Sequence record: PZ445451.1
Origin: a phage
Length of the DNA stretch: 64,000 nucleotides
Reading direction: 5' to 3' (one strand)
Positions 12,423 to 30,995 of the stretch are shown one piece after another. The notes under the pieces were generated by a model. The model was given only the letters and a program-made list of their open reading frames with translations. It ran no database searches and was not told the DNA's origin. How positions within the stretch are numbered: the first letter of the stretch is position 1; each line of letters begins with the position of its first letter. The position numbers and the translations under genes were made by a program.

Positions 12423-12440
12423 AAGGGGCTTTCGCCCCTT
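12423..12440 (-). terminator. Hairpin AAGGGGC-TTTC-GCCCCTT upstream of polymerase gene
   Basis: GC stem with flanking A/T runs between two minus-strand genes. Confidence 0.45.
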
Positions 12441-12444
12441 CTTG

Positions 12445-12840: not shown

Positions 12841-12850
12841 ATTTTTCTCC

Positions 12851-14623: not shown

Positions 14624-14635
14624 AGGATTCTCCTA

Positions 14636-15849: not shown

Positions 15850-15860
15850 ATAACTCCTTG

Positions 15861-16835: not shown

Positions 16836-17508
16836 ATTTTTGAGCCTCCTCATAAGAGATAAAAGTTTTACCATTGCGAAGATCCTCCAGTGATTGTTTA
16901 TATTGTTCCCAGTTTACACCAATCCCCTGTTCTTTCTCTTCTTTTGACAGATTCGCAAAAGGTAAAGGATTATCTCCAAACACATCGTCAGGATGGATAA
17001 ACGCCATAATTCGAATAGGACATGGTACACCGAGAATGCCTCGGTTCAAACCTGCCAGTGGAACGCGCTGAATCCACTCTGCATCTTCATATCCATAACC
17101 GTGGGTGTATGAGCGGAAATAGCCAGCTTTCTCAATAACTGCACGGGAATACATACCAAACTGGCACATACCTAGTTCCCAAATAACCACCTCCCCTTCA
17201 ATACCTTTTACTTTATCTTTAAAGTATTCAGGCATACCAAAGAAATCCCAACCATTTTCCTTTGCCTGTTTTACAAAATATGTTTCCCACCCTGGAACAA
17301 CAGGGTAGCAATCATCATCAAAAATAAACCAGTAGTCATACCCTTCATCATAAAACTTTTTCATCAGTTCATTACGGGCATATGCAACACCTTTTCGTTC
17401 ACGATCATACTGTACAACAAAAGTAGCATTAGGATCAGTCACAAGATAATCTTTAAGAGGACGCTTACCTACAGTAATAACACCAACACCAATTTTTGTA
17501 TTTTCCAA
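16822..17508 (-). CDS. Glycosyltransferase, GT-A fold (family-2-like)
   Basis: FIFDDDCYP DxD-type motif and YGYEDAEW motif. Confidence 0.6.
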   Translation of the reverse strand: MENTKIGVGVITVGKRPLKDYLVTDPNATFVVQYDRERKGVAYARNELMKKFYDEGYDYWFIFDDDCYPVVPGWETYFVKQAKENGWDFFGMPEYFKDKVKGIEGEVVIWELGMCQFGMYSRAVIEKAGYFRSYTHGYGYEDAEWIQRVPLAGLNRGILGVPCPIRIMAFIHPDDVFGDNPLPFANLSKEEKEQGIGVNWEQYKQSLEDLRNGKTFISYEEAQKYGKS

Positions 17509-17517
17509 AATAACTCC

Positions 17518-18081
17518 TTAAATAATTTTATTCATGTCTTGACAATGTAAAAGGTGTGAAACAGCTTTTCTAGGATCATCATTACCTAAACGGTAGGTGT
17601 GAAATAAATATAACCCACGTAATAAACCTAGCCTTTTGTTGTTAGCATGTAATGCTTTAGAGAAAATTATATCAAACTGTATTGACCTTTCCTCAAAAGG
17701 GATTTCATTCCACAGACTCTTACGAAAGAGAAGAAAGAATCCTGCTAAGATAGCATCTGTAGGTACTTCCTCTATTGAGTTTCCCCATTCTAGATGTGCT
17801 CTTTTTGCAATCTCAATGTGGTGTAATATATTCGGATCTTCACTTCTTTCATTATTAAATAATTGATATGTTGATCCCAATCTGTTACAAGATGCACCAA
17901 GAACATCAAAATCAGGATTTGAACGGACAATTGATTCCAGCCAAGCAGGTTGTTCTGGAAGAAGAAACATTGTATCAATGTCTCTTAGGCAAATCCAACT
18001 ATCTTCTGGTAAGACACTTATTGTGTCATTGATACCTTTTCCAATATCTCCAGAAAGATAGGGAGTTATGTGAAATATCAT
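17518..18081 (-). CDS. Putative small glycosyltransferase-like protein
   Basis: ICLRDIDTMF DxD-like motif; clustered with three glycosyltransferases; weak assignment. Confidence 0.3.
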   Translation of the reverse strand: MIFHITPYLSGDIGKGINDTISVLPEDSWICLRDIDTMFLLPEQPAWLESIVRSNPDFDVLGASCNRLGSTYQLFNNERSEDPNILHHIEIAKRAHLEWGNSIEEVPTDAILAGFFLLFRKSLWNEIPFEERSIQFDIIFSKALHANNKRLGLLRGLYLFHTYRLGNDDPRKAVSHLLHCQDMNKII

Positions 18082-18138
18082 ACTCCCTCCGTATTATTAC
18101 TTTAGCATTTTTAGACTAAAAAGTCAAAATGGTTTTAC

Positions 18139-18829: not shown

Positions 18830-19339
18830 TTAGCGATAGAATTGATGTTCTTTGTAGCGGTACACTAGAACCATATCTTTTTCCCAGTGTGCTCTTATTG
18901 TAGATTTTTTAAAGTATAATGCTCCTTTTGTAATATCTAATGCAATTCGTAATTCTGGAAAATGCGTATCGAGATAAAGTAGACGTTCTGCTATAGCCTT
19001 AGCTTCCTTCCACTTATCACGTTCCATAACGTTGAATGTCTTTGTGTAAGAGAATTGTCCTTTTTGAAACAAAACTTCTTTTATAGTATCAGGGAAATAT
19101 GAATCTCTAGCCCTATTCAATACTACATTACCAACAGCAGACATACCGCGCTTTCCTTGATTACGACTTTCTGCATAGATTGCACAAGCTAATAGATTTT
19201 CTTTACTATCACGCTTTGTACACTTGTGAACTACTTTAGCAGTTTTTACGTTTGCAGCTTCGGCTTGCGCCACAACAGGTGTAAATGTAAAAGCAGTTAA
19301 GGATAGTAACGCAATTGCGACAAAGGTTTTTATTGACAA
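18830..19339 (-). CDS. Secreted cell-wall hydrolase (SleB-like), candidate endolysin
   Basis: Signal peptide MSIKTFVAIALLSLTAFTFTPVVAQA; CAIYAESRNQGKRGMSAVGNVVLNRAR...QKGQFS matches cell-wall hydrolase signature. Confidence 0.65.
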   Translation of the reverse strand: MSIKTFVAIALLSLTAFTFTPVVAQAEAANVKTAKVVHKCTKRDSKENLLACAIYAESRNQGKRGMSAVGNVVLNRARDSYFPDTIKEVLFQKGQFSYTKTFNVMERDKWKEAKAIAERLLYLDTHFPELRIALDITKGALYFKKSTIRAHWEKDMVLVYRYKEHQFYR

Positions 19340-19431: not shown

Positions 19432-20034
19432 TTAGATATTGTAAACCTTTGTATGAGTTACTACACCATCTTCTACAAAATCAATACGTTCTTGATCCGT
19501 AACTAGTGCAGACAACACTTTAAATTTAATTTTTACACGTTCAAAAGCTGGTTGACCATCTTTAAGATAATTATGTTCGGTTGTCACTGTCTTGTTTACA
19601 AAATCAACTTTCGCTTTACCGTTTTCGCGCAAGTGGAATGTTTTTCCTGCTTTATACACAATTTCAACATTACCTTCGAGAGTAATTCCTTCAAAAAGTT
19701 CACCCTCTTCTTCATTTTCTTCACTTTTGAACAGACGACGAAACTCTTCCATATCAAGATAAACAACATCTTCAGAACAACTATCAGTAAGGTATGTCTT
19801 ACCATCCATTAACCCGAAATATTGCCAGATCGCAGAATAAACATCACTAGTTGATCCAAGGGTTTCCCTGAGTTTAGTTCCACGGATTACCTCATAAACT
19901 TCAAAACTGAAACCAGACTGCAAAGCATTAAACAGTACATCACTAACTTCTAAAGCATAATCTTCATTGTTGTCAATATCCACAAGAAAATTGCCGCTAC
20001 GAATAAGTTTTTGACCTTCTAAAGTAATACCCAT
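19432..20034 (-). CDS. Hypothetical protein
   Basis: 200 aa ORF; no recognisable motif. Confidence 0.5.
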   Translation of the reverse strand: MGITLEGQKLIRSGNFLVDIDNNEDYALEVSDVLFNALQSGFSFEVYEVIRGTKLRETLGSTSDVYSAIWQYFGLMDGKTYLTDSCSEDVVYLDMEEFRRLFKSEENEEEGELFEGITLEGNVEIVYKAGKTFHLRENGKAKVDFVNKTVTTEHNYLKDGQPAFERVKIKFKVLSALVTDQERIDFVEDGVVTHTKVYNI

Positions 20035-20061
20035 TGTTTTCTCCTCTTCTATTTAAAATAT

Positions 20062-20077
20062 GCGCCCCGAAGGGCGC
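20062..20077 (-). terminator. Hairpin GCGCCC-CGAA-GGGCGC after TerD gene
   Basis: 6 bp GC stem directly downstream of the TerD stop, followed by T-rich stretch on minus strand. Confidence 0.35.
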
Positions 20078-20086
20078 TATGATTTA

Positions 20087-20683
20087 TTACTCGAACCAAT
20101 CGTCGCCAGCGCCAAACGCTTTAACTACATCGTAAATGTCAAGCCCAGCTTTACCTACACCATATGCTTTCAGTTTCCATTCACTGTCTTCCCGTACCAG
20201 GGAGGCAACGTGGCAAATGGTGTTACCTGCAAGTTCTGGAGCCAAGAAGTCAAAGTCCAGCAGTTCAACATTACGTTCATCATCGAAGATTTTAAGGAAA
20301 CCTTCGGTAGCGTGACCAAGGCGTTTCTTACCCGTTTCGTCATCAATAGTAATTACGAATGCAATTTCCTGTGCTTCAGCAGAGATATTATCCAGTGTAA
20401 CATCAATCTGCTCCATTTGTCCTACACCGTCACGAACATCTTCACCTGCAAAAGTAGAACGTTCAGGATCAAATTTCTGTGCGTAGCATACCAGGTGGCG
20501 AGGAGACAACAGTTCCGGCAGACCAGATGCATTGTGTCGGCAAATCAGAGCACTAACATCCAGATCCAGTTTTTCGTTAGATTTCCAAGAGAATTCCAGA
20601 CGAATACGTTTCAGTGCTGGTGCGATCTTTTTCAGAGAAACTTTTTCGCTAGAACCTTTTTTCAGGGAAATTTTCTGAGTCAT
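20087..20683 (-). CDS. terD: TerD-family protein
   Basis: Blocks LDLDVSALIC, GEDVRDGVGQMEQIDVTL, acidic IDDETG and C-terminal WKLKAYGVGKAGLDIYDVVKAFG match the TerD fold pattern. Confidence 0.8.
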   Translation of the reverse strand: MTQKISLKKGSSEKVSLKKIAPALKRIRLEFSWKSNEKLDLDVSALICRHNASGLPELLSPRHLVCYAQKFDPERSTFAGEDVRDGVGQMEQIDVTLDNISAEAQEIAFVITIDDETGKKRLGHATEGFLKIFDDERNVELLDFDFLAPELAGNTICHVASLVREDSEWKLKAYGVGKAGLDIYDVVKAFGAGDDWFE

Positions 20684-20755
20684 AATTTATTATCTCCTTT
20701 GTTGTTAATTTACGTTGTCTATTTTACTAATCTTTTCTACAAAGTCAAGCGTTTT

Positions 20756-21550
20756 TTACGCTTTTGCTCCAAATTTTTTAACCCACTCACCAAACTCTTC
20801 GGATAGTAGTTTATCGTAAAGTTCTTCGTCAGACAAGGACAAATCTGCAATACCGATAAAATCAACATTATCATATTCTTTTGCCAAGTCTTTCAGGAAT
20901 TTAAAGTTTGCATTACCTACACCAACCATAAACCAGTAAACAGGTGTATTGCGGTGTTTGTTCAGTAAGCTACGTACTGCTGAAGTATCCATGTTCTCCC
21001 CGTCAGTTTGGAAGAAAATCATTGCAGGAGTACGATCAACTTGTGCATCAGTATCTACAACCTGTTCTACAACAGTACGTGTAACTTCTACAAGTTCTTT
21101 TTTACCAGTTAGTTTAGCAAGGAAACCCTTAGCCGGAACTTCTTCATACTCAACGACTTCGCGTGTAATATTTTTCATAGGTACACTACCGAAGTATGTA
21201 TCATAGATCTCTTGCATTACTGGGGCATAAGCTGTACCACCATTGATGCAAACATTAGACATACAAGAGCCGACATAATCATCATATACATCAGCCGTTG
21301 CAGGAGGCAGTTCAAAAGAAGAACTATTGAAAGCCCACATGTCAATCTGTGCATTATCATCAAACTTCATACCAAACGGCAGCAGCTTACCTACAAAATC
21401 ACTAACAGTGCCATCACGATACAGCTCACACATACTACCCGAAATGTCTAAGGCGCTACCGACACGAAGAACAACATCGTTAATCTTTTTCTTACGCAGA
21501 GATACAGTAAGAGTTTCTTGACGTTTTTTAAGACTGATTTTATTGGACAT
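20756..21550 (-). CDS. von Willebrand factor A domain protein (TerY-like)
   Basis: MIDAS-type DISGSM motif, later FQTDGE; adjacent to TerD as in bacterial ter loci. Confidence 0.7.
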   Translation of the reverse strand: MSNKISLKKRQETLTVSLRKKKINDVVLRVGSALDISGSMCELYRDGTVSDFVGKLLPFGMKFDDNAQIDMWAFNSSSFELPPATADVYDDYVGSCMSNVCINGGTAYAPVMQEIYDTYFGSVPMKNITREVVEYEEVPAKGFLAKLTGKKELVEVTRTVVEQVVDTDAQVDRTPAMIFFQTDGENMDTSAVRSLLNKHRNTPVYWFMVGVGNANFKFLKDLAKEYDNVDFIGIADLSLSDEELYDKLLSEEFGEWVKKFGAKA

Positions 21551-21551
21551 A

Positions 21552-21821
21552 TTATTTCTCCTTTCTGAGTGTAATGTTAGTAACTTCTAAATCCACTTCT
21601 ACCATTTCTGTATCATATGAAATACAGCTAAGTTGACCTCTTTGTGAACCGTTCAGACACATCGCTTGGTTTGTATTAACCTTAATAAACACTAAGTTTC
21701 TGAACGTATCTAAACCAGAATCTTGATAGGCAACATAATATACAAATGTATCACCTGCGTCAAGTTCTCCAAAACATTTAGGTTCATCTGATTTGTCGTC
21801 TTTGATATTAAATTTAAGCAC
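21552..21821 (-). CDS. Hypothetical protein
   Basis: 89 aa ORF within Ter-like cluster. Confidence 0.45.
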   Translation of the reverse strand: MLKFNIKDDKSDEPKCFGELDAGDTFVYYVAYQDSGLDTFRNLVFIKVNTNQAMCLNGSQRGQLSCISYDTEMVEVDLEVTNITLRKEK

Positions 21822-22377
21822 TATCTCCTCCTTTACCTACTTTCCAACCTAAATAGAAAGCCTCTCTGGTGATTTTTTGCAACTCGTTTAAAGAGATAGT
21901 TACAACTAAATCATCTTCAATTTCTAGCTTTGAGTCTTCTTCTGTCTCAATGCAAGTATTATGCACTTTGTGGTAAGGATTGTCAACACGTTTAAATTTA
22001 TTATTTTCAGTGCTGAAGAAGCAATCTGGATCTTCTTCTCCATCACCCCAACCCTGGTTAGGGTCTTCTTCAGATCTTTCTGTTGGGATTTCACCTGTAA
22101 AGTGCTCTTCTAACACCATAGCAATACCATCCCCAAGATCGGAAGAGAACATCAAATTACAAACTTCTTCCCAAGGCATAGACCACTTGAATCTTTTACG
22201 ATTGCCATGTTTATCTTCTTCGTTAGAGAAAACACTACCATAGCTATCATAATTGCCATACATCTCTTCAACAACTTTACCACCTTTCAAAAGAAATAGG
22301 TAGCAAGGAGAGCCATCGAAAGAGGTAGAAAGAGCAGCATTACCAGACTCTTTGCACAAGAAACTAAAACATCCCAT
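21814..22377 (-). CDS. Hypothetical acidic protein
   Basis: 187 aa ORF within Ter-like cluster. Confidence 0.5.
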   Translation of the reverse strand: MGCFSFLCKESGNAALSTSFDGSPCYLFLLKGGKVVEEMYGNYDSYGSVFSNEEDKHGNRKRFKWSMPWEEVCNLMFSSDLGDGIAMVLEEHFTGEIPTERSEEDPNQGWGDGEEDPDCFFSTENNKFKRVDNPYHKVHNTCIETEEDSKLEIEDDLVVTISLNELQKITREAFYLGWKVGKGGDSA

Positions 22378-22577
22378 TATACACCAGCCTTAAGATCAAT
22401 TATAGCCAAAGTTGTTTCAGAGTGTGTTTGCTCGTCTACAGGTGCAGTCATATGATAATACAAAAAATCTTCAACATCATACCAATCTGACTCTTGACCT
22501 TGTTTCCAACCATCAATGAAAGCATCTTCCATAATGGTTTGTAACTCTTCACGAGTTAAGTGAATATCTTTACTCAT
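22377..22577 (-). CDS. Hypothetical small protein
   Basis: 66 aa ORF with start/stop overlap to neighbours. Confidence 0.4.
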   Translation of the reverse strand: MSKDIHLTREELQTIMEDAFIDGWKQGQESDWYDVEDFLYYHMTAPVDEQTHSETTLAIIDLKAGV

Positions 22578-22810
22578 TACACATTCTCCTCTTTTACCAA
22601 TTCCATCGTTGAACTATCAAAACCATCTTTAGAAGAATAGGTATAGACAGAACGTAGTTCTCGCAGGACAGTAAATACATTAGGATCATCTAACCAAGCA
22701 TCCTGGAGGAGAACATAACGATCTTCATTGTCGTACTGGACAGCGATCATAGAACCAGACAGTTTGTAAATTTTAATATTCATAATATATTTCTCCTTAA
22801 AGTAGACCAC
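22577..22810 (-). CDS. Hypothetical small protein
   Basis: 77 aa ORF, translationally coupled. Confidence 0.4.
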   Translation of the reverse strand: MVYFKEKYIMNIKIYKLSGSMIAVQYDNEDRYVLLQDAWLDDPNVFTVLRELRSVYTYSSKDGFDSSTMELVKEENV

Positions 22811-23900
22811 GTTTAACAGTTTGAATCATACCATCTTCAAGAGATTGCACTTCTTGAATGTAATCAATACGAGCAGCACGGGCTTCAGTGTTGATTCGGT
22901 TAGTTTCTTCCAACATTTTAACTAAGTTTTCTTGATCACGACGTAATGTTTCAATATCCAATACTTGACGATTAGCAAGTTGTGTAGCTTCAATCTGGTT
23001 TTGTGCAGCCAGATCACTACCCATTGCAATAGCAGCATTAAATTCATTCAGTACGTTGTTCTGTGTATCGGCTGCTTTCTTCTGGCGTAGACTTTCAATA
23101 TACATAGAAAAGTTTGCAGAGTAAGCAGGGATAACGTTATTCACAATATTACGGGCTGATCGCATCAAACTTGCAGATACTTTCTGCATACTTTGTACAC
23201 GTGGCCCCATCTGAACACAGAGTAAACGTAAGGCTTTCAGGTCTGCAATACGAATTTCAAGCAGATCCATAGTATCACGAGTACGTTTACGCTCTTCTAC
23301 TTCATTTTCAGGTAGTGTATTAAGGCGAACTTCTTCTTTTTCATAAGTAGCTGTTAGAAGCTCTATATCCCTGTTTAAGCTAAGAGCATATTTTGCAATA
23401 GCCTCTTCTAAACGTTGCAGATATCGTAAAGAATCTTCTTCTTTTTTCAAGTCTGTTTGGAGTATCTTTACCAAACCTTCAATACGGTTATTGATGGTGT
23501 CAAATTCTCCAAACAAATCTTCTTTCATACCTAAAACTTTCTTAACTAGTTTACCTAAACCTTTAGATTGTTTAATAGAGTTAGGATCAAGTTGCTTTGC
23601 TTGCTTAATAAGTGCAGTTAAACGTTCACTCATTTCATCTCCCTGAGATGAACGCTGGTGTTTAAGCACTTCAGCATTAAGGTTACGAAGAGTAAGTCCT
23701 GCATCAGCACCAACCTGTTCAATCTCTTCACGAGACATTGGAGGCAGCATTTGTACAGGGCGTGCAACAGCAGGGGCATATACAGGACTTGCATCCATAG
23801 CACTTGGAGCAAACAAAGACTTACTTTTTTCTGTTGTTGCCGTGAATACACTCATTTCAGACGGTTTGCTTTTTACGGCACTGATAAAAGGACTGGACAT
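22797..23900 (-). CDS. TelA-like (toxic anion resistance family) coiled-coil protein
   Basis: 367 aa largely alpha-helical/coiled-coil protein of TelA size, flanked by TerD, vWA and TerC genes; assignment from context and composition. Confidence 0.45.
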   Translation of the reverse strand: MSSPFISAVKSKPSEMSVFTATTEKSKSLFAPSAMDASPVYAPAVARPVQMLPPMSREEIEQVGADAGLTLRNLNAEVLKHQRSSQGDEMSERLTALIKQAKQLDPNSIKQSKGLGKLVKKVLGMKEDLFGEFDTINNRIEGLVKILQTDLKKEEDSLRYLQRLEEAIAKYALSLNRDIELLTATYEKEEVRLNTLPENEVEERKRTRDTMDLLEIRIADLKALRLLCVQMGPRVQSMQKVSASLMRSARNIVNNVIPAYSANFSMYIESLRQKKAADTQNNVLNEFNAAIAMGSDLAAQNQIEATQLANRQVLDIETLRRDQENLVKMLEETNRINTEARAARIDYIQEVQSLEDGMIQTVKRGLL

Positions 23901-23968
23901 TCAATTTCCTCCATATTCTTTAGTAGATGGTGATACCTCTGTACCACCATCATAACACAAATTAAGTA

Positions 23969-24820
23969 TTAAACAAACATATCTAAATAATTTGTAGTAA
24001 TAAATGCTCCATCTGCTTCCAGATTAACATAACCAGTAGCATTAGTGGTTAAGAAATCCAGATCGAAGGACTCTTTAACACCACGTACCTCAACACGAGA
24101 AATATCGAATACAGGTAGTGTAACAGCCTCTTCGTGCAATACCGTACCTTTGTAGGTTGCCTTAATGATAAACTTGATATTACCCGTTCCCGCATCATAC
24201 AAAACACTTTCAAAGCCTTTGAGAGTATACTTATCACCAGAGGTGAAGTGCAAAGTTGCTTTGTTTACAGTACGTTTTTTACGAGGAGTTCCTTTCACAC
24301 GTTTATGATCACTACGTTTTTTGTATTTAGGAATGAATACAAACGATACACTCTCAAGAAAGGTATCAACATCAAGGATTTTAATATCCTCTGTTGCAGC
24401 AAATTTTGAAGTCGTTGCATCAAAATGCTTTTCCCTGCGATCATACATAAAGATATCAAAACGATCTTCTAAATCAAACAAATTATGTATCTTAATTTCA
24501 GAATGTTTGCACATTGCAGCAACCTTAAACTCTTCAAAACGTGGGTGTTCTACAAGCTCTTCAAGTTTTACACCAAAGACAGTATATTGCTTCGAAGTCT
24601 TTTCTGGTGTTGGCATTACAGAAGCATAGTCCCCGATTGCGCTCTTAAAGCAAAATTGCTCTTGACCTGTATTTTTACCAACGAATTTACAGTATTCGTC
24701 ATCGTGCATACTTTCTTTGGTAGTACCAACAAACTCAAAACCATCTTTATTCTTCTCAAGAATTTCTTGATTAAAGATCCAACCTTCCAGGCGATACACT
24801 TTACCAACTTCTAGTTTCAT
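23969..24820 (-). CDS. Hypothetical protein
   Basis: 283 aa ORF within Ter-like cluster. Confidence 0.5.
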   Translation of the reverse strand: MKLEVGKVYRLEGWIFNQEILEKNKDGFEFVGTTKESMHDDEYCKFVGKNTGQEQFCFKSAIGDYASVMPTPEKTSKQYTVFGVKLEELVEHPRFEEFKVAAMCKHSEIKIHNLFDLEDRFDIFMYDRREKHFDATTSKFAATEDIKILDVDTFLESVSFVFIPKYKKRSDHKRVKGTPRKKRTVNKATLHFTSGDKYTLKGFESVLYDAGTGNIKFIIKATYKGTVLHEEAVTLPVFDISRVEVRGVKESFDLDFLTTNATGYVNLEADGAFITTNYLDMFV

Positions 24821-24855
24821 CTGTTTCTCCTTCTTATTTAATCTGTATTAAATTA

Positions 24856-25446
24856 TTAACGACGACGTGAGCTACTAAAACTACGTTTCGACGAAGAATA
24901 ACTTTTCGAAGACTTACTATAAGAGCTAATAGGACTTGAGTAAGACTTACGAGCAGAGTAATCACTATTCACTTTTGTTGTTGATGGGCGTGAATACGTT
25001 TGTACACTTTGCTGCTTAATTGTGTTTTGTTTAGTGGTTGTATATGTATTTACAGGTTTATCATAAAAACTACGCTTTTGTGTTGTATATGATTTACTGT
25101 TAGTTGTAGGAGCAGCATTGTTATTAATAATGGTTGTATTGCTACCGCCATCTCTATAACCACCACCGCCACTATTACCACTCAACATATGACCAAGAAG
25201 CATACCTGTAGCAAATTCACCTACACCAGAAGAACTACTACCACCTCCTTGCACAACAACTGTTGAAGGTTGTGCAGGTGCTGCTTGAACAACTTGAGGT
25301 GCAGGTTGATTTACATATTGTTCATCTACCATCTGATTTGGTGTTTGTTGGTAACGTTGATTTTGTACATTTTCAGAATCATCACAACCTACCAGCAATG
25401 CACTACCTAATACAACTGCAACAATAAAAGATTTAATGTTTTTCAT
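24856..25446 (-). CDS. Lipoprotein with low-complexity Q/S/T-rich region
   Basis: Start at internal ATG after GAGGG; signal peptide ending in LLVGC lipobox; serine-rich basic tail. Confidence 0.55.
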   Translation of the reverse strand: MKNIKSFIVAVVLGSALLVGCDDSENVQNQRYQQTPNQMVDEQYVNQPAPQVVQAAPAQPSTVVVQGGGSSSSGVGEFATGMLLGHMLSGNSGGGGYRDGGSNTTIINNNAAPTTNSKSYTTQKRSFYDKPVNTYTTTKQNTIKQQSVQTYSRPSTTKVNSDYSARKSYSSPISSYSKSSKSYSSSKRSFSSSRRR

Positions 25447-25639
25447 TTGTAACCCTCTCATTTAAAGTCTCAACACAATTTTTAAAATCCCTAGAGAAAC
25501 AATACATCTGTTCTCCGTTCCTGTTGATAGTAATTGTATGGTTATCAATGTATGTTGTCAAGATAAAAATCAAACAAAATAACCCTAAAGCAAAACAAAT
25601 ATTTTCAAACAGAATCCAAAGAACACGTAAAACCACCAT
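25433..25639 (-). CDS. Small membrane protein
   Basis: 68 aa ORF with one hydrophobic helix (FALGLFCLIFILTTYI). Confidence 0.35.
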   Translation of the reverse strand: MVVLRVLWILFENICFALGLFCLIFILTTYIDNHTITINRNGEQMYCFSRDFKNCVETLNERVTNEKH

Positions 25640-25654
25640 CAGATCACCTCAACA

Positions 25655-25672
25655 AAGCCCCCGAAGGGGCTT
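25655..25672 (-). terminator. Hairpin AAGCCCC-CGAA-GGGGCTT after TerC gene
   Basis: 7 bp stem followed by TTTGTT on minus strand. Confidence 0.5.
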
Positions 25673-25678
25673 AATGAA

Positions 25679-26656
25679 TTAAGCAACAGTCTGGTCTTCT
25701 TTTTCAGGGAAGATTAAACTTGCAATAACACCCAGCCCCAGAGTACCTAACACAATATACATACTGATCGTCGGATCAATGTGTGCTGGCAGGAAACTCA
25801 CTTTTGCGTGCAGAGTTTCTGCAAACGGGTGATACATCAGTTTTACACCCACAAATACCAGGACTACGATAACTGCTTTCTCCAGATGAACCAAATATTT
25901 CAGTGCAACACTAAGGACAAAGAACAGAGCACGTAGACCTAAAATTGCACACAGCATTGAAGAAAATACAAGCAGAGGTTCTTGTGTCACTGCAATTACT
26001 GCTGGAACAGAGTCTACTGCAAAGATTACGTCAACCATTTCCATTACAAACACACAAACCAGAGCCGGAGTTGCTACACGAACACCATTTTTGATTGTGA
26101 AGAACTTCTCACCATCCATCTGATCAGATACAGGGAACAGCTTACGAACAATGCGAGTAACCCAGTGTTTAGAGTAATCAACTTCTGCGTCATTATCTCC
26201 AGCGAATACCATTTTAGCTGCACAGAAAAGGATGACCGCACCGAAGAAGATATTAACATACCAGCCCAAACTCAACAAGTAAGTGCCTACTGCTACAAAC
26301 ACACCTCGGAAGACAATCGCACCTGCAATACCCCAAAGTAGAATCTTGTGTTGCAAGTGTGTGCTTTTAATACCAAAACTTGCGAATACTGCCACAAATA
26401 CTACTAAGTTATCTACAGAAAGAGATTTCTCCAACACATACCCACTCAAGAACAAGCTCGCAAAATCAGCACCGTGTTGGAAGTATACAAAACCATAGTA
26501 GGCTAATGATACCCCAATCCAGAAAATTGACCAACCAACTGCCGATTTAAATGAAATCTCTTTGTTTTCTCTGTGTCCAAAGAAATCAATACAAATCGAC
26601 AACACTAAAATACCCACTAAAACAACCACATCAATAATTGGGAAACCCAGTTGCAT
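25679..26656 (-). CDS. terC: TerC-family integral membrane protein
   Basis: Multi-pass membrane protein with SLSVDNLVVFVAVFASFGI, the DNxxVF signature of TerC. Confidence 0.85.
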   Translation of the reverse strand: MQLGFPIIDVVVLVGILVLSICIDFFGHRENKEISFKSAVGWSIFWIGVSLAYYGFVYFQHGADFASLFLSGYVLEKSLSVDNLVVFVAVFASFGIKSTHLQHKILLWGIAGAIVFRGVFVAVGTYLLSLGWYVNIFFGAVILFCAAKMVFAGDNDAEVDYSKHWVTRIVRKLFPVSDQMDGEKFFTIKNGVRVATPALVCVFVMEMVDVIFAVDSVPAVIAVTQEPLLVFSSMLCAILGLRALFFVLSVALKYLVHLEKAVIVVLVFVGVKLMYHPFAETLHAKVSFLPAHIDPTISMYIVLGTLGLGVIASLIFPEKEDQTVA

Positions 26657-26733
26657 TCTCTTCTCCTCTTTAATGCGGAGGACAATCCTCCGCTCTATGT
26701 CTTATACTATAAACTGTTTTTAAAGAAAGTCAA

Positions 26734-26982
26734 CTAGTTCAGTTCTGTAATTTTAAGTTTATCTTCTTTGTTAATGATAGGGAAAGCTACAGCATCACCT
26801 ACATCATCAATAAAGCAAATAGCAAGACCACCTTCCACTTTGCTAACCTGACCGTTAAAGGCATGATACGGGGCAGGAACTTCATCCCCATCTTCAATGA
26901 GAATAGCCTCGTAAACCTTGCCGATAGTACAATCACGGGTGTTTATAAATTTTTCAAGCACTTCAACATTTACTTTACGCAT
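26734..26982 (-). CDS. Hypothetical small protein
   Basis: 82 aa ORF upstream of TerC. Confidence 0.45.
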   Translation of the reverse strand: MRKVNVEVLEKFINTRDCTIGKVYEAILIEDGDEVPAPYHAFNGQVSKVEGGLAICFIDDVGDAVAFPIINKEDKLKITELN

Positions 26983-26996
26983 ATAAAGATCCTCTC

Positions 26997-27203
26997 TTAT
27001 TTGTTAGATTGAAAGATACCACGGAGTACCGCAAGAATGAACGTCACACAGACTACACTCCAAAACGTTACAGGAACATGATGCCAGTCTAAGCCGATAA
27101 TGTCAATCATATAATTGTATGCTAAAAGCAGTAGCCAACTAGGGATTAACACAATCAAGAACACAACAATAAAACAACCTAATACTGCTAAAACACCTGC
27201 CAT
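26997..27203 (-). CDS. Small two-helix membrane protein
   Basis: 68 aa, two hydrophobic segments. Confidence 0.45.
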   Translation of the reverse strand: MAGVLAVLGCFIVVFLIVLIPSWLLLLAYNYMIDIIGLDWHHVPVTFWSVVCVTFILAVLRGIFQSNK

Positions 27204-27212
27204 ACTTTCTCC

Positions 27213-27929
27213 TTATTTCAGTTTGTAAACAATTACATTTAAACCTTTGTTTACTAGAGTTTCTTCGATCATAAGTTTTACAATATTCCAAGAACCTCCA
27301 GCCAAACCACAACCAAGCATTGGTAAACCTACAATTTTACCGCCTGAAGATACAACATCGTCTCCCATACTATCTAGCGCATTGTAGATAGCTTCATAAT
27401 TCAGGTCACGCTTACCTTCCTCACGACTACTATAACCATATTGTCCATATAAATTATAAATTGTCAAATTGTTTTCTGTATATTTGGTAAACGTACCTAA
27501 TTTTTTATAATCACCACGTTTAGTGGCACAATCTGCTTTAAACGCACCAGGCCACTTGCTTTTAATTTTTGGTGCAATACCACTACCCATAGTGCAAAAA
27601 CAGTTACAGCAGTGTGCTATAGCGTCTATATCGCCTCTCTCGGCTGCTGCTAAAAGATCACCGTATACCTCAACGATACCTGCTGGATAACTTGTTACAA
27701 TTTCATCTTCCCAGTACATTTTCTCTACACCACCGATCAGTGCAAAGTTTTGTGTAATGCGATCATCAATATAGTTAAGACCTGAAACATACACAGCGTA
27801 TTCATCCTGTGCTGTAATACCTTGCACACGAATTCTTAAGACACCATCTTTATCTGTTGCTACACGCCCAAAATCTTTTTCTGTAATATTGGTGATAGGA
27901 TCTCCGAAAGTCATTACTTTATTAGACAT
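27213..27929 (-). CDS. Rossmann-like nucleotide-processing domain protein (macro- or LOG/SLOG-like)
   Basis: DAIAHCCNCFCTMGSGIA and VGLPMLGCGLAGGSW Gly-rich loops resembling macro or LOG motifs; start set at ATG after AAGGGG, overlapping PRTase stop by 8 nt. Confidence 0.45.
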   Translation of the reverse strand: MSNKVMTFGDPITNITEKDFGRVATDKDGVLRIRVQGITAQDEYAVYVSGLNYIDDRITQNFALIGGVEKMYWEDEIVTSYPAGIVEVYGDLLAAAERGDIDAIAHCCNCFCTMGSGIAPKIKSKWPGAFKADCATKRGDYKKLGTFTKYTENNLTIYNLYGQYGYSSREEGKRDLNYEAIYNALDSMGDDVVSSGGKIVGLPMLGCGLAGGSWNIVKLMIEETLVNKGLNVIVYKLK

Positions 27930-28779
27930 AATAATCCCCTTTAACATTAGATTTGTTGATAATGTTGCTTTCAAAAAATTGACGTAGGAAATCAAAGTTC
28001 TCTTTGTATTTTTCAACGTTATTGTAACCTTCTGCAAGGCAACCAAAGAACAGTTGTTCTACATAATACAAAGGAAGTTGTGAAAGTGCAATTTTAAAAT
28101 CAACTTCGCTTTGACTCATTAGATACTTAATAGGACGAACCAAACATTTAGCATCAGTTTCTTGCTTAATCATTTTAATAAAAGCTGCCAGATTGTTGAT
28201 ATAGTTGAAGTTAAGTGCAGCTTCGGTATTGGCTTCTGTACCTTCATACTTTGCAAAGTACAGGAAAAACGTATCGTTTTCAACACCTTCTTTGTCTAAA
28301 ATTTCAATAAGTTTTTCTTCGTGTGTTCCTGTAATATTAACATCATCAATGAAAATCAGAGTTTTATTACCCCAGAAATCACGATTGATAGAGAAAGTGT
28401 CACCATCGATCAAAGCCTTACGATCTTCTTTGCTAAGAAATCCATAATCATTAATGTAGCTCACTTTACGATGAACGATATCCCACTCCACTGCTTTACC
28501 TCCTTTGATAGAGATTAGGTAGTTGAGGTGATCTACAAAATGTTCAGATAACACTGTAGCTGCATTTTTCACATAGTTATATGGAGATGGAATAACAACA
28601 AAACTTTCATTTACCAGTCGTTCTTCATACTTAGAAAAGAAACTTTCAGCCAGAATGCGCCCCATTCTTTTTGCTGCCTGGTTACTGCCAAACTTTAGCT
28701 TGGAATAATCTGCAATGTTAAATTTTGCTTCCTTCAGGTTAGTAAAAGTATTAGCAAAATGTTGAATTTGATTACGCAT
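27922..28779 (-). CDS. Type I phosphoribosyltransferase-domain protein
   Basis: PRPP-binding signature LIFIDDVNITGTHEE. Confidence 0.6.
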   Translation of the reverse strand: MRNQIQHFANTFTNLKEAKFNIADYSKLKFGSNQAAKRMGRILAESFFSKYEERLVNESFVVIPSPYNYVKNAATVLSEHFVDHLNYLISIKGGKAVEWDIVHRKVSYINDYGFLSKEDRKALIDGDTFSINRDFWGNKTLIFIDDVNITGTHEEKLIEILDKEGVENDTFFLYFAKYEGTEANTEAALNFNYINNLAAFIKMIKQETDAKCLVRPIKYLMSQSEVDFKIALSQLPLYYVEQLFFGCLAEGYNNVEKYKENFDFLRQFFESNIINKSNVKGDYYV

Positions 28780-29428
28780 TAATAAGTTCCTCTTTTTTAA
28801 GTTTAGCCAACAAGTCTTCTGGATTAATAATATGACAGAACTTCATCCCTATGTCAACAGCTTTTCCATCATAGATCAAACTATCTCCAACGTGTAAGAT
28901 CTCCTCTGGTGCGAGATCAAACGTTACCATTTCATCAAAAGAGAGTTTAAAAAACCTGGGATCTGGTTTACACAAGCAAAACTCATCAGAAAAATGCATA
29001 AAGTCAAATGGTAATTTTGTCAAGCCAGAATATACAGCTAAGAAACTACCAGGTACAAAATTGGTATTGCTTTTAATACTCAAAGAATAGGTTGAACTTA
29101 GCTCTTCCAACTTCTTGCAAAGTTCAGGGTTTAATGTTGGAGGATGTTTTATAAACATTGCTAAACAGTCTCTTTTTAACCCATCCACCTTATCAAGATC
29201 AATGTTCAAATGAGCAGAAAGTGTTTCCCAAGCATTTCTAGATGTTCCACAAATGCCTTTTTCTGCTTTTAAATCCAAGAGAGTTTTTACCTCTTTATAT
29301 ACGGTAGCTGCTTCTACCTCAGAACAAGAGGCATACTCGGCAATAACCTTGTTGCGTTCTTCTGCATACAAAGGATTAGCAGTAATAAGAGTATTCCATA
29401 CATCAAAAGAAATATGCTTAACAGTCAT
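28772..29428 (-). CDS. HAD-superfamily hydrolase (phosphatase-like)
   Basis: N-terminal ISFDVWNTLI motif I-like block and C-terminal HVGDSLIYDGK motif IV-like block; overlaps PRTase start by 8 nt. Confidence 0.55.
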   Translation of the reverse strand: MTVKHISFDVWNTLITANPLYAEERNKVIAEYASCSEVEAATVYKEVKTLLDLKAEKGICGTSRNAWETLSAHLNIDLDKVDGLKRDCLAMFIKHPPTLNPELCKKLEELSSTYSLSIKSNTNFVPGSFLAVYSGLTKLPFDFMHFSDEFCLCKPDPRFFKLSFDEMVTFDLAPEEILHVGDSLIYDGKAVDIGMKFCHIINPEDLLAKLKKEELINA

Positions 29429-29429
29429 T

Positions 29430-29585
29430 TTAATCCTCCGTCCAAAAGAATATCATCTGCTTAATTTTATTAATCTCTTGATGTAGTAACTTTCCAGCAT
29501 GTGATTGATCTTTAATATTGACAGCAAGAATTTCAAGCTCCGTCAGTTTTTCTTGGATAGCTTTATATTCATCATCTGTAAGCAT
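29430..29585 (-). CDS. Small coiled-coil ORF (51 aa), not in ORF track
   Basis: ATG after AAGGGGAAG; stop overlaps the RBS of the HAD gene. Confidence 0.3.
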   Translation of the reverse strand: MLTDDEYKAIQEKLTELEILAVNIKDQSHAGKLLHQEINKIKQMIFFWTED

Positions 29586-29596
29586 TTTCTTCCCCT

Positions 29597-29800
29597 TTAG
29601 AATGGTAATCTTTGTATATCACTTATCCCCACACCAAGAAGTCTAGCAATATCCTTATCTAAAAGCAACTCTTTTTGTTCTAAAATGTTAATCAGATCTC
29701 CTAATACTTCTTTAATGTCACGATCATTTTTAGCAACGTGACCACCTGCTGTATCAACTTTATCTTTAAAAACAAAATAATGATCCATAATACCCTCCAT
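29597..29800 (-). CDS. Hypothetical small protein
   Basis: 67 aa ORF directly after terminator hairpin. Confidence 0.4.
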   Translation of the reverse strand: MEGIMDHYFVFKDKVDTAGGHVAKNDRDIKEVLGDLINILEQKELLLDKDIARLLGVGISDIQRLPF

Positions 29801-29807
29801 ATAAATA

Positions 29808-29827
29808 AAGGAGGCTTTCGCCTCCTT
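29808..29827 (-). terminator. Hairpin AAGGAGGC-TTTC-GCCTCCTT after ATPase gene
   Basis: 8 bp stem followed by T-rich run on minus strand. Confidence 0.55.
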
Positions 29828-29834
29828 TTATCAC

Positions 29835-30995
29835 TTAGTAAGAACGACCACCAAACACATACTCTGTGTAGTTTTTACGTTCTTTGTTTTTAATAACAAC
29901 TTCAATGTTGTTACCTTTATCATCGGTGAACATAAAGTGATAACCGTCACCACCCATTGTACGAATGTGTTTTTCATCATACGTTAGCAAGATACGGTCT
30001 ACACCCCAGTAGTAGTCACCTTCTTCATCTTTATCTTCTACGGTAACAATCCCTTCCATTTCAGGAAGATGCTCTTCACCTAGTTTATGGTCTACAGCTA
30101 CAACATAACGATTACCGCTAAACAAACCTTGTGCTGTCATACCGTCAATATCGGTATCTGACGAAACATCTCCTGTACGATCTACACCGTTAACTTTCAG
30201 AAGTTTAACCTCTTTTGCAGCATAGCGGTGTTCAGTAATACTGATACCCATCAATGCAAGTGCATCAGAGAATTTGTCATTAGGGTAACGGTTAAGTTCT
30301 TCTACTAATGACTGAACAATATCAAAGTTCAAATCCACGGAGAGATTATAAAGCGTTTCAAAATCTGGTAAGAAGGCTTTGTTCTCCAGATTTTTAGCCA
30401 GATAATCATCCATAGTAGCTTTAGGTAGTTTCTTATAGCTAAAACTGTAGAAAATACGGCTAGGACGATTACGCAAAAATTCTGATACATAACCATCATT
30501 TTTAGTCAATACAAACAGTTTGTCGTAGCCACCAACACCATCCAGCAGGGTAAGCAAACCATCTTGTGCATCTTTTTCAGCATACAGTTTATCAAATTCA
30601 TCGATCATAATCATCACAGGTTGTGTGATTTTAGACATAAAATTGATAAAGCCTTCACCATTAAAAGCACTACCGATAGAAATAGTAGGAATACCCATTT
30701 CACGAAGAGCAGAAGACAGCATTTTAGCTTGCAAAGTTTTACCGCTACCTTTCGTACCTTCAAGGAGAACACCTGTGTTTTTACCTTTGCGGCTAAGGAA
30801 CGTTTTGATAATACGTTCTGATTTATCATCAGTATCACCGTATGTTACTGAAGGGACTTCCATATCGTTTTTAGGATACAGGAAGAACTCACCACTTTGA
30901 GTAACACCTACACCAAAAGTTCCTGCTGGAATTTCTTCAATATCTGTACCAGATTTCTGACGCAGAAAGATTTGATTGCCGAATACTGTAAACAT
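29835..30995 (-). CDS. P-loop NTPase (AAA-like), paralog of 46733-47860
   Basis: Walker A GTKGSGKT, Walker B IMIDEFDK, LLTLLDG and NRPSRIFY blocks shared with the plus-strand paralog. Confidence 0.6.
   Translation of the reverse strand: MFTVFGNQIFLRQKSGTDIEEIPAGTFGVGVTQSGEFFLYPKNDMEVPSVTYGDTDDKSERIIKTFLSRKGKNTGVLLEGTKGSGKTLQAKMLSSALREMGIPTISIGSAFNGEGFINFMSKITQPVMIMIDEFDKLYAEKDAQDGLLTLLDGVGGYDKLFVLTKNDGYVSEFLRNRPSRIFYSFSYKKLPKATMDDYLAKNLENKAFLPDFETLYNLSVDLNFDIVQSLVEELNRYPNDKFSDALALMGISITEHRYAAKEVKLLKVNGVDRTGDVSSDTDIDGMTAQGLFSGNRYVVAVDHKLGEEHLPEMEGIVTVEDKDEEGDYYWGVDRILLTYDEKHIRTMGGDGYHFMFTDDKGNNIEVVIKNKERKNYTEYVFGGRSY

Follow-up and report, generated by a model that had tools for sequence, protein, structure and literature searches.

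Do the Ter-like genes of Escherichia phage PaulScherrer (Bas60, Justusliebigvirus), a member of a virulent myovirus group, form one system with the predicted nucleotide-metabolite genes beside them, and is such a system new? In the window, the whole 64,000-nucleotide stretch of record PZ445451.1, all open reading frames reported by the earlier note were present on the minus strand with the coordinates it gave. Profile searches upheld its TerD, TerC, TelA, vWA, PRTase, HAD and macrodomain assignments (Table 1), confirming the observation of a Ter cluster with a HAD–PRTase_3 pair. All cluster genes are under purifying selection, with pN/pS of 0.00-0.28 relative to three close relatives (TerD 0.009, vWA 0.017, PRTase 0.046, HAD 0.053). 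This kind of cluster is not new. Phage Ter systems including a PRTase and a HAD protein were already described by Iyer et al. 2021 (PMC7824862, sec. 3.4.10), who proposed a role in superinfection exclusion, in competition with superinfecting phages, and raised xenobiotic resistance in pseudolysogeny as a secondary possibility. The claim that no phage system of such composition had been characterised therefore holds for experiments only. Genomes of phi92-like phages carry annotations of the cluster genes, and Ter gene clusters have been remarked in further phage genome papers. The Bas60 cluster is genuine and under purifying selection; it belongs to an already known, uncharacterised kind and is carried by a tractable K-12 phage.

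Table 1. Features of the Bas60 cluster, in window coordinates.
Feature	Coordinates	Strand	Evidence
UUCG-loop hairpin GCGCCC-TTCG-GGGCGC, T-rich tail	20062..20077	-	-13.6 kcal/mol, z = -3.9
TerD-domain protein	20087..20683	-	Pfam 5.1e-28
Putative sigma-70-like promoter TTGACT-16-TAAAAT upstream of terD	20721..20748	-	pattern match only
vWA protein, TerF C-terminal type, MIDAS motif D-I-S-G-S	20756..21550	-	Pfam PF10138 1.2e-38
Four small ORFs (77, 66, 187, 89 aa), telA–vWA gap	21552..22810	-	sequence
TelA-family (toxic anion resistance) helical protein	22797..23900	-	Pfam 2e-33, residues 57-362
283-aa protein	23969..24820	-	phrog_27504
Predicted lipoprotein, signal peptide to lipobox L-V-G-C, Gly/Ser/Thr-rich low-complexity tail	24856..25461	-	sequence; phrog_21570
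Hydrophobic 68-aa protein, subfamily-wide	25433..25639	-	weak DUF6693
UUCG-loop hairpin GCCCC-TTCG-GGGGC directly past terC, weak T tail	25656..25669	-	-12.6 kcal/mol, z = -2.1
TerC/Alx-family integral membrane protein	25679..26656	-	Pfam 1.7e-38
5'-UTR stem-loop ahead of terC ribosome-binding site	26675-26693	-	fold + comparison
Putative sigma-70-like promoter TTGACT-16-TATAGT upstream of terC	26733-26706	-	pattern match
82-aa protein	26734..26982	-	sequence
Small hydrophobic 68-aa protein, two predicted membrane spans (by eye)	26997..27203	-	phrog_16065
Macrodomain protein	27213..27929	-	Pfam Macro 2.8e-07
PRTase_3 (ComF-like type I phosphoribosyltransferase), second gene of pair	27922..28779	-	Pfam 3e-41
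HAD-superfamily hydrolase, first gene of pair	28772..29428	-	Pfam 'Hydrolase' 4.5e-06
GNRA-loop hairpin with T-rich tail, gap between AAA ATPase gene and first small ORF	29807..29828	-	-16.7 kcal/mol, z = -6.9

The Ter set of Bas60 is reduced compared with bacterial Ter sets, and the description of it as complete could not be maintained, since profile searches of the cluster ORFs detected no TerB, ATP-grasp, TerY-C, kinase or PP2C. TerD also matches PDB 2kxt (8.6e-15), yet its canonical Ca2+-binding loop is degenerate (GEDVRDGVGQMEQ as opposed to GDNRTGEGDGDDE in Klebsiella TerD); alignment to 2kxt and other phage TerDs shows that the Bas60 lineage has lost much of this loop. The protein labelled vWA/TerY-like does carry a vWA domain, while the TerY type was rejected, as Pfam places the domain with TerF. 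TelA corresponds to phrog_5890 and has no solved structure related by sequence. TerC passes the NCBIfam TerC/Alx model TIGR03718 (323 bits vs a 246 cut-off) and retains both family motifs, E-K-S-L-S-V-D-N and D-V-I-F-A-V-D-S-V-P-A.

The three hairpins proposed as boundaries are all intergenic, and each is much more stable than its shuffled counterparts. A generic terminator scan by itself performed at chance level (10 found vs 9.1 expected). The outermost two form terminator-like boundaries upstream and downstream of the cluster. A division into two transcription units is too simple, given putative promoters directly upstream of terC and terD. Matches to the promoter pattern occur at background frequency (58 found vs 53.5 expected); the terC promoter and stem-loop layout (26675..26733) is conserved, with the -35 box TTGACx kept in five lineages. 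Changes in the stem are compensatory: across five lineages its seven pairs include five with double changes and none broken; the stem-loop has no match in Rfam.

Upstream of the Ter genes, the HAD protein narrowly clears the Pfam threshold, at 27.6 against 26.4 bits, and it also matches NCBIfam HAD-IA variants. Its top PDB sequence match, 2om6, shares an FDVWNTL motif with it. In the family alignment, motif I reads S-F-D-V-W-N-T, which keeps the nucleophile Asp9 but has Trp in place of Asp+2; the other motifs, II (S-N), III (K-P) and IV (G-D-x4-D), are intact. The HAD family call holds, whereas the label of phosphatase is unproven, because Asp-x-Trp replaces the Asp-x-Asp of phosphatases and the general acid/base Asp is missing. 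For the same reason, a plain scheme of phosphoribosylation followed by dephosphorylation may be wrong. In PRTase_3, the PRPP loop L-I-F-I-D-D-V-N-I-T-G-T-H-E is kept family-wide, with most positions invariant. Both reported 8-nt overlaps were found: the PRTase_3 start overlaps the HAD stop (ATGCGTAA) and, in the genus of Bas60, the macrodomain start overlaps the PRTase stop (ATGTCTAA).

The pairing of HAD and PRTase_3 is strict and obligate: PRTase_3 has HAD as its direct upstream neighbor in 39 of the 39 other loci examined, which cover four isolated-phage lineages, IMG/VR and metagenome viral contigs, Rhizobium/Ensifer replicons and Bacteroidetes MAGs. Synteny, which had been suggested as a check, also bears out the link between ter loci and PRTase and HAD genes that the earlier note had cited. 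PRTase_3 is the Ter-linked family, and one bacterial relative of the pair sits within a TerDx3 - vWA/TerY_C - PP2C - kinase ... P-type ATPase cluster. The Ter linkage recurs across many phage lineages and in two Bacteroidetes MAGs. At least five different gene orders place TerC, TerD and vWA-TerF no more than 10 kb from the pair (Stephanstirmvirinae; L008/L030/L036; L007/L039; L034; L038), and four of these five also include TelA. The neighborhood is thus kept despite rearrangement, which argues for a functional link between the pair and the Ter genes. Pairs with no Ter genes within 10 kb on either side are found in XaC1, a Rhizobium phage, CcrColossus, several viral contigs and all Rhizobium/Ensifer loci. 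Pseudomonas syringae phages possess Ter genes, with no evidence of the pair among the 157 phage records of the PRTase.

On balance we lean toward reading the locus as three separable parts: a HAD–PRTase_3 cassette, a reduced Ter membrane module and an AdfM/Tk.4-like macrodomain. The cassette alone, excluding the macrodomain, would be the biosynthetic unit, and is predicted to make a small ribose-linked molecule. PRTase would couple a base or base-like acceptor to PRPP, giving a ribose-5-phosphate conjugate; HAD would then process this product, possibly by removing the 5'-phosphate, although its Asp-x-Trp motif means that the chemistry may differ from an ordinary phosphatase reaction. The Ter module would comprise TerC (Alx-type, metal-transporting), TelA, the TerF-type vWA protein and TerD, along with lineage-specific small membrane proteins and the lipoprotein, and together with the cassette may represent the phage counterpart of bacterial Ter systems. 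The RNA polymerase of the host would transcribe the genes, starting at promoters of the sigma-70 type. TerD may read the metabolite and/or Ca2+, and TerD, vWA and TelA could come together beneath the inner membrane, with TerC shifting ion or metal flux there. The result would be a conditioned envelope of the infected cell, most likely serving to keep out superinfecting phages, to withstand pore-forming insults and to preserve the energy state of the cell up to lysis. In favor of this proposal are the family assignments, the strict pairing, the recurrent Ter linkage, the strong purifying selection on the core genes, the putative promoters ahead of terC and terD, and the matching component logic put forward by Iyer et al. 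(PMC7824862). Counting against it are pairs that occur apart from Ter genes, phages with Ter genes but no evidence of the pair, the degenerate Ca2+ loop of TerD in the Bas60 lineage, the missing acid/base Asp of HAD and the background frequency of promoter matches.

The earlier note had counted the macrodomain, called macro/LOG-like, as a step of the metabolite pathway. Its macro part was borne out, while profile searches of the cluster ORFs gave no LOG/SLOG signal. The ORF had been listed as 27213-28046; 27929 is the better start. The N-terminal ~85 aa are lineage-specific (predicted-structure pLDDT <50), and the C-terminal 155 aa adopt an ALC1-like (TARG1/DarG/SCO6735-class) fold, with matches to PADLOC DarG (6e-14) and PDB 5e3b, SCO6735 (2e-15), and Foldseek matches to TARG1 (4.6e-13), Bt_1257 and DarG. 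Gln163 aligns with SCO6735 Gln85, which is essential (PMC9411070), and the long mobile loop is also present. SCO6735 acts on ADP-ribosylated DNA, reversing DarT2 (PMC9411070). The protein is 34% identical (E=2e-21) to the T-even protein Tk.4 from PP01, the orthologue used for comparison with the characterised T4 Tk.4/AdfM, which together with PhiKZ AdfM guards against DarTG2 (bioRxiv 10.1101/2025.11.20.689424; PMC13309987).

These relationships weigh on the idea that HAD, PRTase and macrodomain form one three-step pathway making or trimming a ribosylated or ADP-ribose-like metabolite for the Ter proteins. The 8-nt overlaps joining the three genes in the genus of Bas60 and the HAD-PRTase-macro order throughout Stephanstirmvirinae would suit it, and macrodomains of this class can use small ADP-ribose derivatives, Poa1p-type ADP-ribose-1''-phosphate phosphatases being among the fold matches. 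Yet the macrodomain adjoins the pair only in this subfamily and in none of six other loci with a full Ter set; the gap to PRTase is 0.6-0.9 kb in L028 and L029 and 6-7.5 kb in L004 and L030. The macrodomain family occurs in 2,989 phage records, ~20x more than the PRTase, most of them with no PRTase, its nearest characterised relatives target ADP-ribosylated DNA, and PRTase would yield a ribose-5-phosphate rather than an ADP-ribose conjugate. We consider such a pathway improbable. The macrodomain probably has a separate anti-DarT2 function outside the metabolite pathway, translationally coupled but functionally independent, and would strip DarT2-type ADP-ribose from phage DNA; the PRTase/macrodomain overlap, which would also fit a common pathway, counts against this independence.

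It is somewhat less doubtful, though still unlikely, that the pair is a stand-alone nucleotide-metabolism or counter-defence module, brought close to Ter genes by a common early expression and not by a common mechanism. It might then serve base salvage or detoxification, a PRPP drain, or interception of a base- or nucleotide-derived immune signal. Ter-less pairs are often placed amid nucleotide-metabolism genes, such as thymidine kinase, Nudix and dNMP kinase in XaC1, DHFR and PurZ-like adenylosuccinate synthetase in Rhizobium phage TM30, and adenylosuccinate synthetase and NT5C in two further loci (L009/L010), and the Ensifer pair has an ordinary metabolic neighborhood. NrdD/NrdG adjoin the pair in the Bas60 window itself. 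Common timing alone is hard to accept, given that the linkage to TerC, TerD and vWA-TerF recurs in at least five phage gene orders and two Bacteroidetes MAGs, mostly with TelA as well, and a salvage PRTase followed by a nucleotide-undoing enzyme would be futile. Far less credible is a "moron" conferring tellurite, xenobiotic or oxidative-stress resistance on the host, which could appeal to the "tellurite resistance" label in related records and PHROGs and to the secondary option of Iyer et al. (PMC7824862). Such labels are inherited names, not tests, and selection by tellurite is implausible; a phage of a virulent myovirus group has no long-term host to benefit, and pN/pS values this low in a phage that is lytic point to a role inside the infection cycle.

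Among the remaining genes, the 283-aa protein is partially conserved in sister genera and has no match in Pfam or NCBIfam and none credible in PADLOC. The lipoprotein claim was sustained by the signal peptide closing with its lipobox, and this protein has 37% identity in Phapecoctavirus. The 187-aa protein is missing from one close relative and reaches 77% identity in Phapecoctavirus. The small protein with two predicted spans adjoins the macrodomain gene across Stephanstirmvirinae (L003, L028, L029, L031), with pN/pS of 0.

The stretch from 20087 to 29428 matched Escherichia phage PaulScherrer (Bas60, MZ501100.1, a Justusliebigvirus of the Stephanstirmvirinae; its positions minus 32,675 give window positions) at 100% over its full length in a megablast search, and 55 further records matched it at 95-99%. 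The cluster sits in a long leftward-transcribed block, downstream of an AAA ATPase gene and class III ribonucleotide reductase genes and upstream of a cell-wall hydrolase gene and glycosyltransferase genes. Every ORF named in an earlier note, which was made from the sequence alone, was found on the minus strand, and its family calls (TerD, TerC, TelA, vWA, macro, PRTase and HAD) were all matched in Pfam by profile search. The lipoprotein that it proposed has a lipobox in a 201-aa product, and both of the 8-nt overlaps that it described are present (ATGCGTAA and ATGTCTAA); the second of these fixes the macrodomain start at 27929. Comparison with three close relatives showed purifying selection on all genes of the cluster, with TerD, vWA, PRTase, HAD, TelA and TerC among the most constrained. 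Records C3, A150, B15 and C12 (MG065656, MG065639, MG065650, MG065635), labeled as Campylobacter phages, are about 99% identical to these E. coli phages or their Phapecoctavirus relatives; they are probably mislabeled as to host, or else contaminants.

Features of the cluster, its flanks and the comparison loci, with Pfam E-values and pN/pS against three close relatives
Feature	Sequence	Position	Strand	Pfam E-value	pN/pS
HAD gene	window	28772-29428	-	4.5e-06	0.053
PRTase_3 gene	window	27922-28779	-	3e-41	0.046
Macrodomain gene	window	27213-27929	-	3e-07	
Part similar to Tk.4	window	27213-27680	-		
Leader of terC	window	26657-26740	-		
Predicted terC promoter	window	26733-26706			
terC	window	25679-26656	-	2e-38	0.069
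telA	window	22797-23900	-	2e-33	0.053
187-aa ORF	window	21814-22377			
vWA (TerF-like) gene	window	20756-21550	-	1e-38	0.017
Predicted terD promoter	window	20748-20721			
terD	window	20087-20683	-	5e-28	0.009
248-aa open frame	window	20060-20806	+		
200-aa ORF	window	19432-20034			
Hairpin and extended -10 promoter	window	19340-19431			
Gene for signal-peptide-bearing protein	window	18830-19339			
Four genes bas60_0048-0051	window	12800-18100			
Leader of terC	L003	12545-12628			
Leader of terC	L031	11544-11627			
Leader of terC	L028	11487-11570			
Leader of terC	L029	5489-5572			
Site lacking the 187-aa ORF	L026 (IMG/VR contig)	16203-16760			
P-type cation ATPase gene	L024 (Tannerella MAG)	10799-13507			
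ClpP-like protease gene	L016 (Ensifer chromosome)	10904-11584			
ClpP-like protease gene	L009 (viral contig)	6115-6720			

Loci were gathered from three sources (isolated phages, viral contigs of metagenomes and IMG/VR, and bacterial genomes representative of their species) and were then searched with tblastn and iterated HMMs. In 39 of 39 loci, the window's own record left out, PRTase_3 has a homologous HAD gene directly upstream, so HAD-PRTase_3 is an obligate two-gene cassette. The PRTase passes the profile cut-off of PRTase_3 (PF15610, a ComF-like, Ter-linked family) and has a PRPP-binding loop and a type I PRTase fold. The family is highly conserved and its PRPP loop mostly invariant. A PDB search with the PRTase profile yielded no solved relative, the PRPP loop alone being matched, and we found no characterized member of PRTase_3. 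A ClpP-like protease gene is found beside or near the pair in two unrelated places, an Ensifer chromosome and a viral contig, a proximity that may be coincidental.

The HAD protein is a borderline Pfam match (27.6 against a cut-off of 26.4, barely over it). The HAD motifs are present (D9; S119-N120; K153; G180-D181...D186), all of them at least 90% conserved across 35 family members. The residue two positions after the nucleophile is Trp in at least 90% of these members and Tyr in the others, in place of the second Asp of DxD. An Asp at this position reportedly serves HAD phosphatases and mutases as general acid/base, according to Burroughs et al. in 2006. The best solved-structure match is 2om6, an uncharacterized archaeal protein with an identical FDVWNTL motif; haloacid dehalogenase-type enzymes are among those that follow it. 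Membership of the HAD superfamily, one half of the earlier call of a HAD phosphatase, is thus supported by four motifs, whereas the Trp and the dehalogenase-type matches leave the word phosphatase an assumption.

At least five different gene orders place TerC, TerD and TerF-type vWA genes no more than 10 kb from the pair, and four of the five also have TelA. Linkage that survives so much rearrangement supports a functional connection between the pair and the Ter genes.

Gene orders found within 10 kb of the HAD-PRTase_3 pair
Gene order	Where found
HAD-PRT-...-TerC-...-TelA-...-vWA-TerD	Justusliebigvirus, Phapecoctavirus, 80%-identity sister group
TelA-vWA-...-TerC-...-HAD-PRT-TerD	L008, L030, L036
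TerC-TerD-vWA-HAD-PRT	L007, L039
TerC-vWA-TerD-TerD-TelA-HAD-PRT	L034
TelA-HAD-PRT-vWA-TerC-TerD	L038

The Tannerella MAG carries in a row three TerD genes, three vWA genes (one with TerY_C), PP2C, a Ser/Thr kinase, HAD-PRTase_3 and a P-type cation ATPase, which is the bacterial TerY-P context. Bacterial Ter and TerY-P clusters (terZABCDEF-type; TerD-TerY(vWA)-PP2C-Ser/Thr kinase) with linked PRTase and HAD genes are said to have been described by Anantharaman et al. in 2012. The pairs of the window and of this MAG are homologous (32-33% identity), have the same order and stand beside TerD paralogs and vWA. Unlike the bacterial clusters, the phage cluster has one TerD and lacks TerB, TerY-C, PP2C, kinase, ATP-grasp and P-type ATPase, while adding TelA, TerC, small membrane proteins and a lipoprotein to the bacterial set. 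The ATPase that follows the pair in the MAG is of the Ca2+ type, and hints at a connection between Ter and calcium.

TerD (PF02342) scored 98.2 bits against a cut-off of 25.3 over residues 5-180 and matches the Klebsiella TerD structure 2kxt (E=8.6e-15). At the site of the Ca2+-binding loop of 2kxt, which we take to be GDN(R/L)TGEGDGDDE, the TerD of the window has GEDVRDGVGQMEQ, a degenerate loop in which several acidic residues are lost; sGDNxTGxGDDE is kept by other phage TerDs linked to the pair. TerC (PF03741, 132.6 bits against 27.8) falls in the TerC/Alx subfamily by its NCBIfam match to TIGR03718 (323.3 bits against a curated cut-off of 246.4). It carries both E-K-S-L-S-V-D-N and A-V-D-S-V-P-A, presumably the two conserved intramembrane acidic motifs of TerC/Alx. 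TelA (PF05816) scored 116.3 bits against 30 and covers model positions 13-330 of 332; PDB sequence searches gave no solved-structure relatives of TelA or TerC. The vWA protein matches vWA-TerF-like (PF10138, 133.8 bits against 29.4) and its MIDAS DxSxS reads D-I-S-G-S at product residues 33-37. The alternative TerY type, suggested earlier for this protein, was not borne out by profile scans, which found no TerY_C domain in any ORF from 19432 to 30995. No kinase or PP2C was found in these ORFs either, so that the TerY-P triad of TerY vWA, PP2C and Ser/Thr kinase, of which kinase, PP2C and TerY_C all occur in the Tannerella MAG, is absent from this range. The description of the set as complete was likewise too generous, as no TerB, ATP-grasp, TerY-C, kinase or PP2C domain was found between 19.4 and 31 kb. 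PADLOC returned no Ter-related defense match among ten proteins, and DarG for the macrodomain only.

The TerC of phage tuntematon (MN850618) is 94-95% identical to that of the window, as are those of PsgM04F (OR584014) and EP57 (OR544956). The PRTase of tuntematon is only 64% identical, and a typical Phapecoctavirus TerC shows 71% identity; these values suggest that the terC segment was recently exchanged between phage lineages.

Phage-encoded Ter systems have been described by Iyer, Anantharaman, Krishnan, Burroughs & Aravind 2021 (Viruses 13:63; PMC7824862). [quoted passage not shown] These systems and the cluster of the window have in common PRTase and HAD "signal biosynthesis" genes, TerD, TerC, TelA, a TerF-type vWA and carriage by tailed phages. 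Neither the Asp-x-Trp HAD motif nor a separate identity of the macrodomain gene seems to be discussed there. Unlike the jumbo examples, the phage of the window is a non-jumbo E. coli phage of about 150 kb from a standard collection. Klebsiella phage phiKp34 has been noted for Ter clusters as well, and terD operons were reported to be highly transcribed in gut jumbo phages. Our literature search turned up no phage Ter gene that had been tested by experiment, which agrees with the earlier statement that no such phage system is characterized, but phages with Ter and PRTase/HAD genes had already been published. The cluster is a genuine member of this published kind and not a new kind. New here are the strict pairing of HAD with PRTase_3, a six-gene set that recurs in shuffled order, the departure of the HAD motif from the canonical form, and a different assignment for the macrodomain.

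Homologs of the macrodomain mostly stand alone, at about 150 aa. In the window's protein, some 85 N-terminal residues are genus-specific and fold poorly (pLDDT <50). Its solved-structure matches by sequence were, best first, SCO6735 (2e-15), Bt_1257 and TARG1, and the Foldseek order was TARG1 (4.6e-13, target-normalized TM 0.90), Bt_1257, DarG and Poa1p. It is 34% identical to T-even Tk.4 (E=2e-21). Gln163 is invariant in 42 homologs and aligns with Gln85 in the "GQHG" of SCO6735, so that the catalytic position (TARG1 K84, DarG K80, SCO6735 Q85) is of the SCO6735 type and not the Lys type; the longer "mobile loop" of the SCO6735 subclass is present too. Gln85 of SCO6735 is essential for removal of DarT-made ADP-ribose from DNA thymidine (PMC9411070). 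T4 Tk.4 was recently named AdfM, and its loss sensitizes T4 to DarTG2 (HIDEN-SEQ preprint, 10.1101/2025.11.20.689424); loss of PhiKZ AdfM (gp104), which de-ADP-ribosylates DNA, has the same effect (PMC13309987). The match to full-length DarG was partial (NCBIfam 49.8 bits against a cut-off of 250, model positions 4-147 of 338), with no DarT-binding domain. The LOG-like alternative proposed earlier found no LOG/SLOG match in Pfam among the ORFs tested across 19432-30995 (E<=0.01; small ORFs <=0.1). Judging from its homologs, the macrodomain is most likely an independent anti-DarT2 gene. It resembles AdfM and SCO6735 in its Tk.4 homology, Gln and mobile loop, and differs in its lineage-specific N-terminus and its translational coupling to the PRTase gene. 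This reassignment predicts DarTG2 resistance for phi92-like therapeutic phages.

We favor a Ter-system reading of the cluster with the macrodomain set apart, and consider it probable, if by no wide measure. Protein identities, motifs, linkage and selection are its observed part; the functional steps are those we infer. The HAD-PRTase_3 pair would make a PRPP-derived small molecule, and TerD, vWA, TelA and TerC would act at the inner membrane. As a result the envelope of the infected cell may be conditioned, most plausibly excluding rival phages and protecting membrane energization, while the macrodomain would act separately on DarT2-modified DNA. CobT and then CobC in alpha-ribazole synthesis are a PRTase followed by a phosphatase, leading from base and PRPP to ribotide and riboside. 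The metabolic logic proposed for the pair is the same. The HAD of the window lacks the Asp+2 acid/base residue of HAD phosphatases.

A more specific and rather speculative version is that the product of the Asp-x-Trp HAD and PRTase_3 is the ribosylated ligand long postulated for Ter, the phage bringing generator (the pair), sensor (TerD) and effectors (vWA, TelA and TerC) of a "sealed" cell state. If so, this state would block rival phages and blunt membrane-depolarizing abortive-infection effectors or colicins. To our knowledge, the metabolite predicted in 2012 from linked PRTase/HAD genes has never been identified, and E. coli K-12 is not known to carry TerD or TelA. Since Bas60 grows on K-12, it would then be the simplest genetic system for the Ter metabolite and mechanism. 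The locus is a stripped-down Ter system with one TerD, one vWA, TelA, TerC and one enzyme pair, without kinases, TerB or ATP-grasp. Such a small set under strong purifying selection, in a lytic public-collection phage that plates on K-12, makes deletion, superinfection, metabolomics and ligand-binding work straightforward.

In the main rival reading, the pair acts independently, as a module of nucleotide metabolism or one directed against a signal. Ter linkage is not obligatory: Xanthomonas phage XaC1, Rhizobium phage TM30, several viral contigs and CcrColossus, one of the Caulobacter jumbo phages that do carry HAD-PRTase_3, have no Ter gene within 10 kb on either side of the pair, and stand-alone pairs in phages are often found among nucleotide-metabolism genes. 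The pair also stands alone, over the same distance, in Rhizobium/Ensifer replicons, and TelA is present in phage groups for which the PRTase search gave no sign of the pair. Weighed with the recurrence of Ter genes in shuffled orders, this explanation appears unlikely. The earlier note joined HAD, PRTase and macrodomain into a three-enzyme pathway, a reading that draws on the overlapping genes. Phage records with relatives number 2,989 for the macrodomain versus 157 for the PRTase, and in the loci outside Stephanstirmvirinae the macrodomain is never next to the pair; we find such a pathway decidedly improbable, and keeping the macrodomain apart averts a wrongly designed three-gene expression experiment. 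Tellurite resistance of the host, in line with the TerD and tellurite-resistance labels that a 2015 study gave phi92 products through automated RAST annotation, is the least credible reading and very improbable. The ter genes of plasmid R478 are credited with phage inhibition and resistance to pore-forming colicins in PMC8386662, which cites Whelan 1995. No PRTase relative was detectable on enterobacterial plasmids by tblastn of 72,556 PLSDB plasmids, where only Rhizobium, Sinorhizobium and Hymenobacter replicons matched; the cluster is thus no simple copy of the E. coli ter island.

The three hairpins described earlier all fall between genes. Their loops are of the UUCG or GNRA type, and they are much more stably folded than shuffled sequence. 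These boundaries are in place for the two transcription units that had been proposed, but terC and terD each have a predicted sigma-70-like promoter immediately before them (both are pattern matches, of a kind no denser than background), which makes just two units unlikely. The yybP-ykoY Mn2+ riboswitch leader is common, not obligatory, before bacterial TerC/Alx genes. Nothing between 19000 and 31000 matched Rfam at E<=1, and hence no such riboswitch precedes terC; a short conserved stem-loop takes its place. A -35 box TTGACx, a 7-bp stem-loop in the 5'-UTR and a ribosome-binding site form a conserved layout, and the stem shows compensatory double changes in five of seven pairs, with none broken, across five lineages. 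The stem-loop has no T tail and no Rfam match, and may be an mRNA-stabilizing or regulatory element.

Beyond terD, the gene for a signal-peptide-bearing protein labeled "putative cell wall hydrolase" in BME3 is preceded by a hairpin and by an extended -10 promoter close to consensus (TTGCAA-17-TACAAT with TG). This promoter drives the 200-aa ORF, which adjoins terD in the nearest relatives and not in Phapecoctavirus. The plus-strand frame antisense to terD is probably not a gene, since related records all annotate the minus-strand genes and none annotates it, and purifying selection on the minus-strand frame is strong. Searches of Pfam, NCBIfam and PHROGs assigned no function to the proteins of 51, 66, 67, 68 (two ORFs), 77, 82, 89, 187, 200 and 283 aa; a Cas12g match of the 283-aa protein was noise (E~3e-3, 14 bits). 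Justusliebigvirus and Phapecoctavirus share the 187-aa protein at 77% identity, yet its ORF is missing from a close relative among the IMG/VR contigs, so it is naturally dispensable even though it is conserved. A run of four genes annotated as putative disaccharide synthases and glycosyltransferases follows shortly after the cluster, in Phapecoctavirus too.
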